64,000 bases of DNA, taken from NCBI RefSeq assembly GCF_041886205.1, contig NZ_CP169029.1. One strand, written 5' to 3'. The position numbers and the translations under genes are program-made. The notes beneath the pieces were generated by a model. The model did not search any database and was not told the origin of the DNA. It saw nothing but the letters and a program-made list of their open reading frames with translations. Shown here piece by piece: positions 2,148 to 9,231 of this stretch (its first letter is position 1; the number at the start of each line of letters is the position of its first letter). This DNA comes from Escherichia coli (lineage in GTDB: Bacteria; Pseudomonadota; Gammaproteobacteria; Enterobacterales; Enterobacteriaceae).

Positions 2148-3392
2148 CTATAGCTGTTTATTCCAGAGATGCTTGAAAATATCTAATGTTGAGACAACAT
2201 TGGCAGGCGACATTCGGTTTAATGAGGGTAGAAAGGGATGAGCCTCCAGGAAGTTGATAAAACGAGTCGCGCTTGCCAACGTCGAATTCCGCATTTCATT
2301 TGCTTTCTTGTTTCCTGTAAGGTTACAAACAGCCATTGAATAATCACGGGCGGAAAATGCACGCCAGACATTATTTCTCACGCCACCACTCAAAAATAAC
2401 CGCGGCGGCGTATCATAATGAGTCGTTTTCTCGCCGCGCTCTTTCACAAAGGAAATATGGCACCGGCCTTGATGAATATGCTGCAAATTAGCCATCAGAC
2501 AACCGCCTAATATAAAGCACTCGTTATCAAGGTAGTGTTGAATATTTATAGAATATCCTTCAGTCAGTACTCTAACCAGTTCAAAATGGCGATACGCCGG
2601 AAGAACCGGTTTCACCAGCATCCCCGGATCGTTTTGATGTAATATCGCCCGACCATAATCAATATCAAATAAGGTATCACGCCGCATAGTAAGTAACTCC
2701 TTGCGTTGTACGTGATGCGCCAGTGTACCTGGAGACAAACGCTCTTCATAACTTGATGCATACTGATAATGCGACTCTACCGCTGATGGAGAATAATTTG
2801 TTGAAATAGCGACAACTCTACCGCTTTGTTCTTCTGTGGTAACAAGACTATAAAGATAGTTATTACTACCGTTAAACTTTACGCGAAAAGCACGGGTAGC
2901 TAGAGAAATATCAGAAGCAGAAGAGTACTGGCGACTTTCTTTATAGTTTACTTCCCGGGCTAGTTTTATCAATTCACGGTTAAGCCCTGTGCTATTAAGA
3001 AGTAATAATTTACGGATATCAGCAAGTGAAGCACCTTGCTCAATCATCAATGCTAACTGTGTTCTTCGCGGCGTTGTATTTACATGATCCAGAGTGATAA
3101 ATGTTCTGGAACAATGATGACAATACATTCTCCTCTGCCCTTGAGCTGAATAACCATACTTTTTCAGAGATGTGCTTCCGCAAGCTGAACATTGTGGAAC
3201 CAACCCTCGCCATGAATGATTAACACGATTACGATAAATATTAAGAGATCGTTCAGATATCACAGGAAAAAAGTAACCGCATTCCCGACATAAAATATTT
3301 TTGCCTTGTGCAATATAATCCTGGCTATTCAACAATCCCAAGTTTTTGCATCCTGGTGTTTTGCAACAATCAACATTTACGTTGGTAAACAT
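2148..3392 (-). CDS. Cys-rich hypothetical protein with N-terminal zinc-ribbon motifs (C-x2-C...C-x2-C, InsA/IS1595-like) and a possible HTH; function unknown
   Basis: ORF track 2148..3428 (426 aa); internal ATG at 3392 (MFTNVNVDCCKTPGC...) has a GGGAG Shine-Dalgarno 5 nt upstream so is the preferred start; motifs CRECG and CSACG-x20-CHHCSRTF; AT-rich codon usage. Confidence 0.6.
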   Translation of the reverse strand: MFTNVNVDCCKTPGCKNLGLLNSQDYIAQGKNILCRECGYFFPVISERSLNIYRNRVNHSWRGLVPQCSACGSTSLKKYGYSAQGQRRMYCHHCSRTFITLDHVNTTPRRTQLALMIEQGASLADIRKLLLLNSTGLNRELIKLAREVNYKESRQYSSASDISLATRAFRVKFNGSNNYLYSLVTTEEQSGRVVAISTNYSPSAVESHYQYASSYEERLSPGTLAHHVQRKELLTMRRDTLFDIDYGRAILHQNDPGMLVKPVLPAYRHFELVRVLTEGYSINIQHYLDNECFILGGCLMANLQHIHQGRCHISFVKERGEKTTHYDTPPRLFLSGGVRNNVWRAFSARDYSMAVCNLTGNKKANEMRNSTLASATRFINFLEAHPFLPSLNRMSPANVVSTLDIFKHLWNKQL

Positions 3393-3429
3393 ATTCACTC
3401 CCTGCGAATATCCGGATATTATCGTCATA

Positions 3430-3473
3430 CGTCAAAGAAAAGAACCTGATTCAATGTGTAACATTGAATCAGG
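3430..3473 (-). terminator. Probable intrinsic terminator downstream of the sulfatase gene
   Basis: Perfect 12-bp inverted repeat cctgattcaatg/cattgaatcagg (3445-3473) with 5-nt loop, followed on the minus strand by TTCTTTTCTTT. Confidence 0.5.
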
Positions 3474-3521
3474 CGGGCATAGCCCTGAAAGGCATACATT
3501 ACATTTATTATGGTTATCAGA

Positions 3522-5015
3522 TTAGCCCCAGGTTACCGCTTCCGGTTTATCACCTCTGGCTTTCATTAATGAATCATTATCAATATCGGCTTTATATTTT
3601 AAGAACTTACCATACATTTGTTTTTCAATGTCTGGATTTTTACCTATCTGATTAATAGTCTCAAAACGATCGGTTTTGAGGTTATATAGGTACTTTGGCT
3701 TATTGTTACGATCGATGATCATTTTCCAGTCACCATCACGTATCGCCCATTCGTCGGTTGGATCATCCTGGAATGGCATGTCAATTCCGAAGATTAATGG
3801 CTTTTCACGTTTTAGCGCTTTGTTCTCAAGGACAGGAACCAACGATTCGCCATCAAAAGTGCGGTCCGTCGGTAATTTGAAGTTCATCATTTTCGCCAGC
3901 GTAGGCATCCAGTCCAGACCATAAACTGGCGTATCTGAAACCATTCCCTTTGGAAGATGTTTACCGTATTTAATAATTGCCGGAACACGGATGCCGCCTT
4001 CCCAAAGATTATCCTTGCGACCACGTAATCCATCAGTTTCACCTGCCAAATTCAGTTCATAAACTTTGCGTGCTTCACGCGTTACTGGGCCGTTGTCACT
4101 GGTAAAAATTATGATGGTGTTATCTTCTTCACCCATCGCTTTAATTTTATCCAGCACTTTTCCAACCTGAGCATCCAGATAACTGATGTTGGCATAATAT
4201 TCTCCTGTACCACGCCAGGGTTTATCCGCCCAGTCGCCATAAAATAAATCAGGATGCTGCTTCTGATATTCGCTCATATATTGTGAGTACATGTCGAGGT
4301 ATTTTTTGGGCGAAGCCAGGGGACTATGTACTTCGGTAAAAGCGACATAAAGGAAGAAAGGCTTACTGTCCTTTTTGTTATCCAACCAGTTAACAACTTC
4401 CGAACTGACATACTCACCACTCATTTTATCGGAACGTGGCGTTGGTTGCCCGTTACGCAACCAACCCGTTGGATAGACCATGCCAAAACGGGGACGCTCC
4501 TTCGCATTATCCAGAGTAGCGTCGGTAACAAAACCCGCCGTATTAACCAGTGAGTAATCAAAGCCCATATCTTTTGCCTGCGGCTGATCGGTGCGATCGC
4601 CGCCTGCATTCAGATGCAGCTTACCCATCATGGCCGTGTCGTACCCTTGCGCTTTGAGTAGATTAGCAATCGTGAGTTCATTACGCCCTAATGCCACATC
4701 TTTTCCCGTTGGGATCCATGAGCGTATGCCAGTACGAAATGGCATCCGCCCTGTTAATAGTCCCGCCCGTGAAGGAGAACTTAAGGGGGCAGGTGCATAG
4801 TAGTCGGTAAATTTGACGCCTTCCCGGGCAAGCCTGTCTATATTGGGCGTTTTAACGATCTGATGTCCATATGTTGCCAAATCACCATACCCTAAATCAT
4901 CCGCCATAATGATGACTAAATTGGGTTGTTTAGTCTCGGCGGCTACGGCTGGATTAAAAGCATTCCCTGTGCAAACTGCAAGGCCGATCAAACTGGCCAT
5001 TAATGTTTTCTGCAT
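3522..5015 (-). CDS. Secreted sulfatase (arylsulfatase family), Ser-type active-site motif
   Basis: ORF track 3522..5051; ATG at 5015 with AGGA 6 nt upstream gives MQKTLMASLIGLAVCTGNAFNPAVAAE signal peptide; N-terminal DDLGYGD metal-binding motif and SSPSRAGLLTGR formylglycine signature with Ser in the modified position. Confidence 0.85.
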   Translation of the reverse strand: MQKTLMASLIGLAVCTGNAFNPAVAAETKQPNLVIIMADDLGYGDLATYGHQIVKTPNIDRLAREGVKFTDYYAPAPLSSPSRAGLLTGRMPFRTGIRSWIPTGKDVALGRNELTIANLLKAQGYDTAMMGKLHLNAGGDRTDQPQAKDMGFDYSLVNTAGFVTDATLDNAKERPRFGMVYPTGWLRNGQPTPRSDKMSGEYVSSEVVNWLDNKKDSKPFFLYVAFTEVHSPLASPKKYLDMYSQYMSEYQKQHPDLFYGDWADKPWRGTGEYYANISYLDAQVGKVLDKIKAMGEEDNTIIIFTSDNGPVTREARKVYELNLAGETDGLRGRKDNLWEGGIRVPAIIKYGKHLPKGMVSDTPVYGLDWMPTLAKMMNFKLPTDRTFDGESLVPVLENKALKREKPLIFGIDMPFQDDPTDEWAIRDGDWKMIIDRNNKPKYLYNLKTDRFETINQIGKNPDIEKQMYGKFLKYKADIDNDSLMKARGDKPEAVTWG

Positions 5016-5034
5016 AATTATTCCTTTATGAAAA

Positions 5035-5796
5035 TTAGAAATCATAACCAAGCATATAAATCATTTGATCGCCAAAACCATCGTAGCCTAACTTATTATC
5101 GAAATAACGCCACGTCACACTGGCTTTCCAGCGAGGACAGAACTTCCAGGCAACTGTTAAACCGCCATTTAGCCCATTCCGACCAAATTGTTGTTCCGCA
5201 TAGGCATCATTTCTGTCCAGTTCTATTTCATTCCAGTTAGATAAAACAAATTTTTCGTCAAATAACGTAAAAGGTAATACTGCTGTCCAACCAACAACAT
5301 AACCATTCCAGCCATTTGTTTGACCATATTTGGCTGAGACATAGTCTCCAGATTGATTATGTAATCCTATATACGGTTTAAAAAATCCCCACGAACCATT
5401 CCAGCCGAGGTAGCCCAAGCCATAAAACATATCAAGATCGTCACCCCATGAGTTATCCCATTGACCATAGATCTTGCCAAAGAAAGTCATATCGGAGTCA
5501 AAAAGTCTGACATGTGTCATAGCAGAAACGGTATGATTACGCCCCGCTACGGCATGGTTAAGCACATTGCTTTCATAAAATGAGTAAAACTCGGCTTCTT
5601 TAAAATTCACACCAAAGTCCGCAGTCACTTTCCATACTTCACCACGGTGAGTGTTAACGAAGCCACTATTCCAGTCAGCATAACCTGCATTTATTGAGCC
5701 AAAGGAACCTTTATATTCTAATGAAGAATATGCAGGAAGATGATAGATAATCGTTGTCAGGGCACACGCAATAAGAAGCCGTCTTTTGGCAGACAT
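5035..5796 (-). CDS. Tsx/OmpK-family outer-membrane channel (nucleoside-channel-like beta-barrel)
   Basis: 253-aa ORF with signal peptide MSAKRRLLIACALTTIIYHLPAYS, aromatic-rich alternating beta-strand pattern, C-terminal ...MLGYDF resembling the Tsx C-terminus; GGAGA RBS upstream of ATG at 5796. Confidence 0.75.
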   Translation of the reverse strand: MSAKRRLLIACALTTIIYHLPAYSSLEYKGSFGSINAGYADWNSGFVNTHRGEVWKVTADFGVNFKEAEFYSFYESNVLNHAVAGRNHTVSAMTHVRLFDSDMTFFGKIYGQWDNSWGDDLDMFYGLGYLGWNGSWGFFKPYIGLHNQSGDYVSAKYGQTNGWNGYVVGWTAVLPFTLFDEKFVLSNWNEIELDRNDAYAEQQFGRNGLNGGLTVAWKFCPRWKASVTWRYFDNKLGYDGFGDQMIYMLGYDF

Positions 5797-6304
5797 ATAA
5801 TATGCTCTCCATTCATTGTTTTTATGTTTCCATAGTATTCAATACATCAGATAATTCATTTTGATTAAGAACGACCCAGAAAGTATATTTAAAGGTGAAT
5901 AGCAAAGCGTGATGAAGATCGCATATTACTTTTACACCAGGGTGTGGAGGTATCGTGTTTCAAAAAGTGTGTCTATTTTAAATATCACTCATTGATTTAT
6001 AGACATTTTTTCCTTATAAAAAACACTAAATTCTGTACAAGAATATTTTGTATCTTCTATTACTTTCTCCAGTAATAACTCACCATCCAGTCATAACTTA
6101 AATCTGCTTGTTCATAATCTTAATTTTTGTAAATGAAAAGGCACATAAGAGTTAAAATAAACAATGAACTAAAGATTAATTATGCAAAAATGCGAGGCGT
6201 CTTCAGGATTAGAATCGATAAAACAGAATGGGTTAAAAAGAGCGATATAATAGCGGCGGGTGCTTGAGGCTATCTGTCTCAGGCATTAGCTGAACGGCAG
6301 ATAG

Positions 6305-6359
6305 AGAAAAGCCCCGAGTGATATTTTACTATCAACCCGAGGCCCCCTATATGCTGAAC
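6305..6359 (-). ncRNA. sokC: sokC antisense RNA of the hokC/mokC type I toxin-antitoxin locus (approximate)
   Basis: Placed by position: antisense to the mokC translation-initiation region as in hok/sok loci; not independently delimited from sequence. Confidence 0.4.
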
Positions 6360-6560
6360 ACATGTAGAGTGCCTCTTACTGACCGTAAGGTCAAGGAGAA
6401 GAGAGCAATGAAGCAGCATAAGGCGATGATTGTCGCCCTGATCGTCATCTGTATCACCGCCGTAGTGGCGGCGCTGGTAACGAGAAAAGACCTCTGTGAG
6501 GTTCACATCCGAACTGGCCAGACGGAGGTTGCTGTTTTCACGGCTTACGAATCCGAGTAA
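6351..6560 (+). CDS. mokC: MokC, overlapping regulatory reading frame of hokC
   Basis: MLNTCRVPLTDRKVKEKRAMKQHKAM... within ORF 6318..6560; shares its stop with hokC. Confidence 0.85.
   Translation: MLNTCRVPLTDRKVKEKRAMKQHKAMIVALIVICITAVVAALVTRKDLCEVHIRTGQTEVAVFTAYESE
6408..6560 (+). CDS. hokC: HokC (Gef) small membrane toxin, type I TA
   Basis: 50-aa MKQHKAMIVALIVICITAVVAALVTRKDLCEVHIRTGQTEVAVFTAYESE. Confidence 0.92.
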   Translation: MKQHKAMIVALIVICITAVVAALVTRKDLCEVHIRTGQTEVAVFTAYESE

Positions 6561-6571
6561 GAGCAACGGCG

Positions 6572-6583
6572 GGGAGTGATCCC
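6572..6583. repeat. Target-site duplication flanking IS186 (left copy)
   Basis: gggagtgatccc immediately outside the left IS end; identical 12-mer at 7921..7932; joined flanks give GGGG-N6-CCCC. Confidence 0.75.
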
Positions 6584-7920
6584 ATAAGCGCTAACTTAAG
6601 GGTTGTGGTATTACGCCTGATATGATTTAACGTGCCGATGAATTACTCTCACGATAACTGGTCAGCAATTCTGGCCCATATTGGTAAGCCCGAAGAACTG
6701 GATACTTCGGCACGTAATGCCGGGGCTCTAACCCGCCGCCGCGAAATTCGTGATGCTGCAACTCTGCTACGTCTGGGGCTGGCTTACGGCCCCGGGGGGA
6801 TGTCATTACGTGAAGTCACTGCATGGGCTCAGCTCCATGACGTTGCAACATTATCTGACGTGGCTCTCCTGAAGCGGCTGCGGAATGCCGCCGACTGGTT
6901 TGGCATACTTGCCGCACAAACACTTGCTGTACGCGCCGCAGTTACGGGTTGTACAAGCGGAAAGAGATTGCGTCTTGTCGATGGAACAGCAATCAGTGCG
7001 CCCGGGGGCGGCAGCGCTGAATGGCGACTACATATGGGATATGATCCTCATACCTGTCAGTTCACTGATTTTGAGCTAACCGACAGCAGAGACGCTGAAC
7101 GGCTGGACCGATTTGCGCAAACGGCAGACGAGATACGCATTGCTGACCGGGGATTCGGTTCGCGTCCCGAATGTATCCGCTCACTTGCTTTTGGAGAAGC
7201 TGATTATATCGTCCGGGTTCACTGGCGAGGATTGCGCTGGTTAACTGCAGAAGGAATGCGCTTTGACATGATGGGTTTTCTGCGCGGGCTGGATTGCGGT
7301 AAGAACGGTGAAACCACTGTAATGATAGGCAATTCAGGTAATAAAAAAGCCGGAGCTCCCTTTCCGGCACGTCTCATTGCCGTATCACTTCCTCCCGAAA
7401 AAGCATTAATCAGTAAAACCCGACTGCTCAGCGAGAATCGTCGAAAAGGACGAGTAGTTCAGGCGGAAACGCTGGAAGCAGCGGGCCATGTGCTATTGCT
7501 AACATCATTACCGGAAGATGAATATTCAGCAGAGCAAGTGGCTGATTGTTACCGTCTGCGATGGCAAATTGAACTGGCTTTTAAGCGGCTCAAAAGTTTG
7601 CTGCACCTGGATGCTTTGCGTGCAAAGGAACCTGAACTCGCGAAAGCGTGGATATTTGCTAATCTACTCGCCGCATTTTTAATTGACGACATAATCCAGC
7701 CATCGCTGGATTTCCCCCCCAGAAGTGCCGGATCCGAAAAGAAGAACTAACTCGTTGTGGAGAATAACAAAAATGGTCATCTGGAGCTTACAGGTGGCCA
7801 TTCGTGGGACAGTATCCCTGACAGCCTACAAAACGCAATTGAAGAACGCGAGGCATCGTCTTAACGAGGCACCGAGGCGTCGCATTCTTCAGATGGTTCA
7901 ACCCTTAAGTTAGCGCTTAT
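6584..7920 (+). mobile_element. IS186 insertion sequence (IS4 family)
   Basis: Terminal inverted repeats ataagcgctaacttaagggttg (left) / caacccttaagttagcgcttat (right); about 1337 bp; encodes InsL; ends uncertain by 1-2 bp. Confidence 0.9.
6638..7750 (+). CDS. insL: IS186 transposase InsL
   Basis: ORF 6632..7750; MNYSHDNWSAILAHIGKPEELDTSARNAGALTRRREIRDAATLLRLG... about 370 aa. Confidence 0.93.
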   Translation: MNYSHDNWSAILAHIGKPEELDTSARNAGALTRRREIRDAATLLRLGLAYGPGGMSLREVTAWAQLHDVATLSDVALLKRLRNAADWFGILAAQTLAVRAAVTGCTSGKRLRLVDGTAISAPGGGSAEWRLHMGYDPHTCQFTDFELTDSRDAERLDRFAQTADEIRIADRGFGSRPECIRSLAFGEADYIVRVHWRGLRWLTAEGMRFDMMGFLRGLDCGKNGETTVMIGNSGNKKAGAPFPARLIAVSLPPEKALISKTRLLSENRRKGRVVQAETLEAAGHVLLLTSLPEDEYSAEQVADCYRLRWQIELAFKRLKSLLHLDALRAKEPELAKAWIFANLLAAFLIDDIIQPSLDFPPRSAGSEKKN

Positions 7921-7932
7921 GGGAGTGATCCC
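7921..7932. repeat. Target-site duplication flanking IS186 (right copy)
   Basis: gggagtgatccc identical to 6572..6583. Confidence 0.75.
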
Positions 7933-7983
7933 CGCCACTTTTCAGGTGCTCGCATATCTTCAACGCACCCTAATTTTACCCAA

Positions 7984-8009
7984 GCCTGCCCACGGGCAGG
8001 CTTTTGGGG
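7984..8009. terminator. GC-rich hairpin between IS186 and dnaJ, probable terminator
   Basis: gcctgcc-cac-gggcaggc stem-loop followed by TTTT on the plus strand; just downstream of the dnaJ stop on the minus strand. Confidence 0.4.
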
Positions 8010-8012
8010 AGG

Positions 8013-9143
8013 TTAGCGGGTCAGGTCGTCAAAAAACTTCTTCACACCATCAAAGAAGCTCTTTGAGCGCGGGCTGTTGTGCTCACCGGTTGGGCCACCG
8101 AAGCTTTCTTGCAGCTCTTGCAGCAACTGTTTCTGCTTCTCGTTCAGGCCTACCGGTGTTTCGACGACAACGCGGCACAGCAAATCACCCTGTGCGCCAC
8201 CGCGGACAGACTTGACGCCTTTACCGCGCATACGGAAAAGCTTACCGGTCTGGGTTTCGCCAGGCACTTTCAGTTTGACGCGACCATCAAGGGTCGGTAC
8301 TTCGATTTCGCCACCCAGCGCCGCCATAGCGAAGTTGATCGGGACTTCGCAATAGAGGTTGTTGCCTTCACGCTCGAAAATCGGGTGCTGTTTAACCTGA
8401 ACCTGAACGTACAGATCGCCTGCCGGTGCGCCATGCTCGCCCGCTTCACCTTCGCCCGCAAGACGGATGCGGTCTCCAGTGTCCACCCCTGCCGGGATTT
8501 TAACGGACAGCGTTTTGCTGCGCTCAACACGACCATGACCATGACATTTGTTGCACGGATCTTTGATCAGCGTACCGCGGCCCTGACAGTGTGGACAGGT
8601 CTGCTGTACAGCGAAGAATCCCTGGCGCATCTGCACCTGACCAGAACCATGACAGGTCGGACAGGTCTGCGGCTGTGTACCTGGTTTTGCACCGCTACCG
8701 TGGCAAACGTCACACTCTTCCAGAGTCGGAATGCGGATCTCTTTGGTCACGCCACGTACAGCTTCTTCGAGGGTGAGCTCCATGTTATAGCGTAAATCAG
8801 CACCGCGCGCCGCACGTTGACGACCACGTCCGCCGCCAAAAATATCGCCGAAAACGTCACCAAAAATATCGCTGAAGTCTGCGCCGCCGCCAAAACCGCC
8901 GCCGCCCATGCCACCTTGCTCAAACGCAGCATGACCATACTGATCGTATGCCGCACGTTTTTGCGAGTCGGTCAGAACTTCATAAGCTTCCTTGATCTCT
9001 TTAAATTTCGCCTCGGCCTCTTTGTCACCCTGGTTACGGTCCGGGTGGTATTTCATGGCCAGGCGTTTGTAGGCCTTTTTGATTTCACGCTCTTCCGCTG
9101 TTTTGGAAACGCCTAAAATCTCGTAATAATCTTGCTTAGCCAT
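8013..9143 (-). CDS. dnaJ: Chaperone DnaJ (Hsp40)
   Basis: [40 protein letters not shown]..., J domain, G/F region, four CxxCxGxG zinc repeats; track ORF extended upstream to 9173. Confidence 0.97.
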
Positions 9144-9231
9144 CTTTTTTAAATTGCCCCTAGATGAATGCACGGGCGGAGAGGAAATTCCCCTTCGCCC
9201 GTGTCAGTATAATTACCCGTTTATAGGGCGA

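Follow-up and report, generated by a model that had tools for sequence, protein, structure and literature searches.

The locus analysed here raises the question of whether a hok-family toxin-antitoxin module can still work when an insertion sequence lies directly behind its toxin gene, and of how the insertion sequence came to be there. Pairing of the 5' tac element with the 3' fbi element locks the full-length hok mRNA in a form that is untranslatable and refractory to Sok, and slow trimming of the 3' end frees it (PMC9841398). The hokC locus described below is probably a chromosomal type I toxin-antitoxin locus of the hok family whose mRNA has had its 3' regulatory domain cut off by IS186, with the loss of delayed killing. 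The loss of function is argued by analogy with hok of plasmid R1 and with hokC of K-12, and the 5' end and promoter of the hokC mRNA are inferred ones.

The hokC locus

The window (the whole stretch of 64,000 nucleotides that was analysed) contains the dnaK-dnaJ-hokC-nhaA region of the E. coli chromosome, in reverse orientation to the numbering of K-12 (Table 1). A single open frame (6318-6560) holds both mokC, with its ATG at 6351, and hokC, with its ATG at 6408, and the two share the stop codon at 6558-6560. The preliminary description had reported an intact 50-aa Hok frame and an overlapping mok frame, and both are indeed present, with products identical to those of K-12. HokC is also identical to WP_000809168.1, which occurs at uninterrupted hokC loci as well, and residues 6-47 match Pfam HOK_GEF (PF01848; E=1.8e-24); the Pfam match and the K-12 identity mark hokC as a membrane toxin gene of the Hok/Gef type, of about 50 aa. 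As is typical of the hok family, the mok frame is in frame with hokC and covers it. An antisense ORF of 95 aa (6279-6566) was treated as a spurious frame opposite hokC.

Table 1. Features of the interrupted hokC locus, in window coordinates
Feature	Position	Strand	Remarks
Putative -10 box TATAAT, hokC/mokC mRNA promoter	6246-6251	+	Read from the sequence; 7 nt 5' of the inferred 5' end at 6258
Inferred 5' end of hokC mRNA with tac element GGGUGCUUGAGG	6258-6269	+	Rfam sok/hok-leader model starts at 6258
sokC antisense RNA gene	6301-6359	-	K-12 annotation b4413 mapped by ungapped alignment; overlaps mokC start and ribosome-binding region
mokC reading frame	6351-6560	+	69 aa; overlaps hokC; ORF with translation identical to K-12 MokC
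hokC toxin gene	6408-6560	+	50 aa, intact; Pfam HOK_GEF match
Left part of split 3'-UTR hairpin, GGCGGGGA GUGA UCC	6568-6582	+	Includes left duplication, 6573-6582
IS186 (also annotated IS421, by PGAP)	6583-7921	+	1339 bp, complete; IRL 6583-6605, IRR 7899-7921
insL transposase	6638-7750	+	DDE_Tnp_1 (PF01609) match, 1.6e-26
Right duplication (7922-7931) and remainder of hairpin 3' arm (CCGCC, 7932-7936)	7922-7936	+	
fbi (fold-back inhibition) element CUUCAACGCACCC	7958-7970	+	Pairs with mRNA nt 1-12; displaced by the IS
Terminator, hairpin and U-tract	7982-8003	both	Perfect 10-bp inverted repeat AAGCCUGCCC/GGGCAGGCUU, then UUUU

At the sequence level, a cis-encoded antisense Sok RNA lies over the mok start, as judged from the mapping of the K-12 annotation, a predicted terminator-like hairpin and an Rfam match. 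For the SokC RNA, a long hairpin with CUUUUCU behind it is predicted (-28.5 kcal/mol), and a -35-like TTGACC for sokC can be read from the minus strand at 6394-6389. The Rfam model 'sok' (RF01794) matches 6258-6410 on the plus strand (122 bits, E=1.9e-28). This match sits on the strand of the hokC mRNA and ends at the hokC AUG, and so it describes the leader, SokC itself being antisense; the strand given by Rfam is not to be taken as that of the antitoxin, which K-12 annotates on the other strand. A sigma-70 consensus scan of 6100-8100 returned no promoter at the thresholds used, the -35 region of hokC being weak, and the hokC and sokC promoters are inferred from sequence reading and K-12 homology only. 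Chance is not a plausible source of the hokC, sok and IS186 matches.

Two neighbouring features may be recorded. The dnaK-dnaJ spacer holds a match to the known tpke11 sRNA (9144-9221, minus strand; Rfam, 69.6 bits, E=2.7e-14). Between hokC and nhaA lies a three-gene island (2148-5796, minus strand) that encodes a protein with an IS1/IS1595 zinc-binding domain (2148-3392), a sulfatase (3522-5015) and a Tsx/OmpK-like porin (5035-5796; Pfam Channel_Tsx, 5.8e-14). The island is missing from K-12, HS and O157:H7 and present in several other lineages; similarity to K-12 picks up again at 6185, 73 bp ahead of the start inferred for the hokC mRNA.

The IS186 insertion and its target

The insertion sequence is 100% identical to K-12 IS186A across its 1339 bp and has the features of the IS4-family element IS186, namely a DDE transposase, 23-bp terminal inverted repeats (CATAAGCGCTAACTTAAGGGTTG) and a length of about 1.34 kb. 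It is bounded by a 10-bp direct duplication of the target, GGAGTGATCC, at 6573-6582 and 7922-7931. The target consensus of IS186, reportedly described by SaiSree et al. in 2001, is a GC-rich G4-N6-C4 palindrome; this consensus, like the figure of 22 bp, is taken from secondary sources. The duplication at hokC lies within just such a palindrome, GGGGAGTGATCCCC.

The end of IS186 that adjoins hokC is the transposase-proximal (left) end, as had been proposed in the preliminary description, which placed it 23 bp past the shared stop. The gap between stop and IS186 is 22 nt if the element begins at CATAAGCG. Because the palindromic target overlaps the ends of the repeats, the gap is ambiguous between 19 and 23 nt, a range that includes the earlier figure; the K-12 annotation has 19.

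The palindrome is a structural element of the hokC transcript. In the hokC 3' UTR it forms a GC-rich hairpin, GGCGGGGA-GTGA-TCCCCGCC, which begins 8 nt past the stop and has IS186 in its loop. When the flanks are joined with one copy of the duplication, the hairpin is rebuilt as GGCGGGGA-GUGA-UCCCCGCC (-18.5 kcal/mol), the whole reconstituted sequence being GGCGGGGAGUGAUCCCCGCC.

Comparison with K-12 and other hok loci

The closest described counterpart is the K-12 locus hokC (gef)/mokC/sokC (sof) with IS186A (b4412, b0018, b4413 and b0016), at the same chromosomal position between dnaJ and nhaA. Here IS186 occupies the same site in the 3' hairpin with the same duplication, and the junctions are identical through the inverted repeat; the reconstituted mRNA sequences of the two loci show 6 differences, and the three-gene island between hokC and nhaA is present in the window and absent from K-12. 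The element itself is inverted. Direct alignment to K-12 matches the body of the IS to the plus strand and both flanks to the minus strand. In K-12, insL1 shares its strand with dnaJ and lies opposite hokC; the transposase-distal end adjoins hokC, and insL is antisense to it. In the window insL lies on the hokC strand, and the transposase-proximal end of the element is next to the toxin gene. Transcription of hokC therefore enters the element at the end where the transposase gene starts, in sense with insL.

In K-12, IS186 is described as disrupting fbi and mRNA processing, and gef/hokC is reported to be still transcribed and regulated by antisense RNA, with termination within the IS (PMC3562002). 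Since the orientation differs, these transcript data should not be carried over uncritically to the locus in the window. They do bear on two statements of the preliminary description. Its expectation of an insertion "as described for K-12" was right for the site and the duplication and wrong for the orientation. It had also held that the toxin remains coding but is probably silent: the frame is intact, but "probably silent" overstates the case, and does so for K-12 as well.

A second K-12 locus, hokE/sokE with IS186B, has the insertion in the loop of a homologous post-ORF hairpin, GCGGGGAGTAATCCCCGC, again with a 10-bp duplication; the IS has the same orientation relative to hok as in the window, and an fbi-like GGCACC lies past it. 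This is a different hok paralogue with a different toxin sequence, located between ybdK and entD. A compensatory change between tac and fbi was suggested in hokE and was not counted as covariation, end-pairing of hokE being found at one of four 3' lengths.

The hok/mok/sok (parB) locus of plasmid R1 shows the uninterrupted arrangement. It belongs to the same family (PF01848) and has an overlapping mok frame, an antisense RNA that covers the start of mok, a 5' tac, a GC-rich post-ORF hairpin, a 3' fbi complementary to the 5' end and a terminal terminator (PMC9841398). R1 hok is experimentally active in post-segregational killing, whereas in the window locus 1349 bp separate the gene from its fbi and terminator.

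Distribution and probable recurrence of the insertion

The site was surveyed in 5426 complete E. coli genomes. It is uninterrupted in 3815 (about 70%), has the arrangement of the window in 898 (about 17%) and has the K-12 arrangement in 678 (about 12%), a class that is inflated by laboratory K-12 derivatives and in which one match is a plasmid hok locus. The three classes sum to 5391. Among the strains with the window arrangement are E. coli HS, C and ATCC 8739. Both interrupted classes were counted with whole-structure queries of about 2 kb. Junction-only queries of 180 bp were rejected, as their 939 and 823 matches, together with the 3815 empty sites, exceed 5426; the overcount probably comes from other hok::IS186 junctions that match at coverage of at least 80%, although the K-12 hokE junction covers only 72%.

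Fifteen loci, nine of them with the IS, were sampled for detailed comparison. It is possible, if on balance unlikely, that the insertions at this site have no functional consequence, chromosomal hokC being no toxin-antitoxin module in any case and the pattern reflecting only the target preference of IS186. The fit of the hairpin to G4-N6-C4 and the occurrence of hits at several hok loci in both orientations are in keeping with this idea, and the roughly equal numbers of the two orientations at hokC (898 vs 678) suggest that there is no orientation-specific selection. Moreover, in the uninterrupted allele of AVS0970 a nonsense mutation (CAG to TAG) has struck the third codon of hokC. Apart from this stop codon, the 15 diverged loci show no variation in tac, in fbi, in the hairpin or in the frame of the toxin. 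The roughly 70% of genomes with an uninterrupted site likewise suggest that the intact architecture is maintained. In addition, hok homologues lie near insertion hot spots, and a preprint reads their disruption as possibly adaptive (10.1101/527788). These points weigh against an insertion without consequence.

Several details of the sampled loci deserve mention. In AVS0970, for which PGAP annotates a shorter Hok/Gef protein, hokC has decayed by point mutation and not by an IS. Two positions of the mRNA, nt 15 (A/G, window 6272) and nt 73 (U/C, 6330), co-vary in 14 of the 15 loci, the exception being LT883142; they do not pair with each other in the predicted fold, and linkage may be the sole reason. 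Some genomes have a further IS (ISEc52, IS150 or IS1A) in the hokC/IS186 region besides IS186.

The hairpin is also hit elsewhere. Three more hok loci carry IS186, in both orientations: K-12 hokE, an MB30 hok beside cysH/cas3, and 'hokD' of plasmid p65COLEC-2. Each has a 1339-bp IS and a 10-bp duplication 21-22 nt past the stop; the loop that holds the IS belongs to a GCGGGG-N6-CCCCGC hairpin, and on the far side of the IS there is a GCACC(C) motif resembling fbi. This shared geometry argues that the conserved hok 3'-UTR hairpin is a general target of IS186. The presence of IS186 beside a CRISPR-adjacent hok/sok has been remarked on (PMC3903273). Outside the hok family, IS186 inserts spontaneously and recurrently at a single GC-rich palindromic site in the lon promoter, in either orientation, much as at the hokC hairpin (PMC3045373). 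At lon the element strikes a promoter and causes Lon deficiency, whereas the hokC target is the mRNA 3'-UTR hairpin of a toxin gene.

A single ancestral insertion that recombination between its inverted repeats later turned round on the spot, and that homologous recombination distributed, is an improbable source of the two arrangements at hokC. All nine IS-bearing loci in the sample have the identical 10-bp duplication, whichever the orientation, and some local haplotypes are found with either orientation (HS vs B-JRPT-4119, and LT883142 vs K-12); the arms that would recombine, including their flanks, are 38 nt long and 89% complementary. On the other hand, IS186 is 99.9-100% identical in either orientation, whereas the flanks differ by 2-4%. 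The flank tree mixes the three states of the site, and for every lineage with the IS there is an IS-free relative that stands closer, such as W2-5, which differs from HS at 1 of about 1630 positions of the flanks. Haplotypes diverge as near as 6 nt from the end of the IS, which leaves almost no room for spread by recombination. The spontaneous insertions at lon in either orientation, and the repetition of the geometry at three unrelated hok loci, also count against a single origin. Nearly identical copies of IS186 between flanks with as much as 4% divergence instead point to recurrent insertion at a hot spot that is common to other hok loci. On these sequence comparisons, the most economical reading is that IS186 has recently and repeatedly inserted at the hot spot, either way round, and that some copies have perhaps been inverted in place.

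Folding of the hokC mRNA with and without IS186

A 400-nt mRNA was reconstituted by removing the IS in silico, running from 6258 to the terminator at 7982-8003, which is common to the ancestral hokC mRNA on the plus strand and the convergent dnaJ on the minus strand. Its MFE is -165.5 kcal/mol (z -6.8), and none of 100 shuffled sequences folds as well. In the unconstrained MFE structure, nt 1-12 (tac) pair with fbi, with ensemble probabilities of 0.94-1.0. In the actual sequence, the IS and the duplication shift fbi and the terminator 1349 bp from the gene, and the partner of tac now lies about 1.35 kb away, past the IS. No intrinsic terminator was predicted on the plus strand between the hokC stop at 6560 and position 7638.

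Folds were computed for 11 transcripts whose 3' ends lie within the IS or at its borders, with the full read-through transcript of 1749 nt as the twelfth. The 5' end lacks a distal partner in the MFE of nine of the 11; the two exceptions are weak and IS-internal, and consist of a G.U-rich pairing with the IS repeat (end at 6600) and of four pairs (end at 6700). Base-pair probabilities were obtained for the reconstituted mRNA and for three IS-internal ends (6650, 6783 and 6900), and for each of the latter the probabilities that nt 1-12 pair distally add up to no more than 0.02. Pairing of tac with fbi returns only in the 1749-nt read-through, which was folded by MFE only. End-pairing of tac and fbi within one transcript, the trait that defines hok mRNAs, is predicted after in silico removal of the IS; in the actual sequence the two elements lie on either side of it, and transcripts that end in the IS do not show the pairing.

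There is also partial complementarity between the terminal repeat of IS186, CAUAAGCGCU (6583-6592), and the hokC tac, which is probably a coincidence. Only the MFE structure of the transcript ending at 6600 has the repeat paired with mRNA nt 2-12, and three of these pairs are G.U. The interrupted 400-nt transcript has an MFE structure in which the mok ribosome-binding site (6339-6343) pairs with a complementary box downstream (6371-6375). MFE folds were rejected as a judge of whether the interrupted mRNA is open or closed, for they are unreliable in this respect; the partner of the mok ribosome-binding site shifts between constructs. On these models, the interrupted mRNA could be translationally closed even without fbi, or it could be open.

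These results bear out the central proposal of the preliminary description: the fold-back element of the hokC mRNA is severed by the IS. It had set beforehand what would speak for an unaffected locus, namely termination ahead of the IS with the fold-back elements retained; what is found is an fbi past the IS and no predicted terminator in front of it.

It is highly improbable that the locus is still a working hok/sok, with regulation and delayed activation preserved because the IS supplies a substitute fbi or because read-through restores tac-fbi pairing: the terminal repeat UAAGCGCU does resemble fbi and pairs 6582-6592 with nt 2-12 in the fold ending at 6600, the read-through regains tac-fbi in its MFE, and the toxin, mok and sokC sequences are the same as in uninterrupted alleles, but the repeat pairs at only one of the 11 ends, ensemble pairing is negligible at the IS-internal ends, end-to-end folding of a 1.7-kb transcript over a translated transposase gene is implausible, and in the K-12 literature the IS disrupts fbi and processing.

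Consequences for the module

The preferred reading, in which IS186 disables the 3' regulatory domain, can be put together as follows. The palindrome that forms the post-stop hairpin of hokC is a G4-N6-C4 site of the kind that IS186 targets, and the element inserted into the loop with a 10-bp duplication. The ancestral mRNA of about 400 nt is predicted to close through pairing of its first 12 nt with fbi, and transcripts that end inside the IS would be unable to form this closure. If R1 hok is a guide, there would then be no stable, translationally inert pool of full-length mRNA from which slow 3' trimming could yield the active form, and because such a locked pool would be missing, the delayed-killing behaviour would be lost. 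By analogy with the hok literature, what disappears would be this pool and not necessarily expression. The toxin, the mok frame and SokC are intact, and any hokC mRNA is probably held in check directly by SokC. The insertion in the window would be one of many recurrent hits of IS186 on this hot spot across E. coli.

The inverted orientation adds a more speculative prospect, which must be rated quite improbable: hokC and insL may be co-transcribed, or an IS-derived 3' end may leave the hokC mRNA permanently open and dependent on SokC. Co-transcription may occur because no terminator lies between the hokC promoter and insL in the orientation of the window. If it does, transposase expression would come under the hokC promoter and under mRNA decay triggered by SokC; if the mRNA is instead permanently open, cells would be dependent on SokC. 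In that event the two natural orientations would be functionally different alleles and not equivalent knock-outs.

Significance

The hokC::IS186 arrangement is a classical feature that has already been described, and the window has the non-K-12 orientation of a common polymorphism. Its importance beyond correct annotation is slight, the locus being a textbook case of how an insertion sequence disables a hok gene of the chromosome. The present analysis adds the precise position of the displaced fold-back element and of the split hairpin, the inverted orientation relative to K-12, and the finding that about 30% of complete E. coli genomes have IS186 at the hokC hairpin in one orientation or the other. 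The G4-N6-C4 target preference of the IS coincides with a conserved structural element of the hok RNA, and would in this way repeatedly disable a toxin module.
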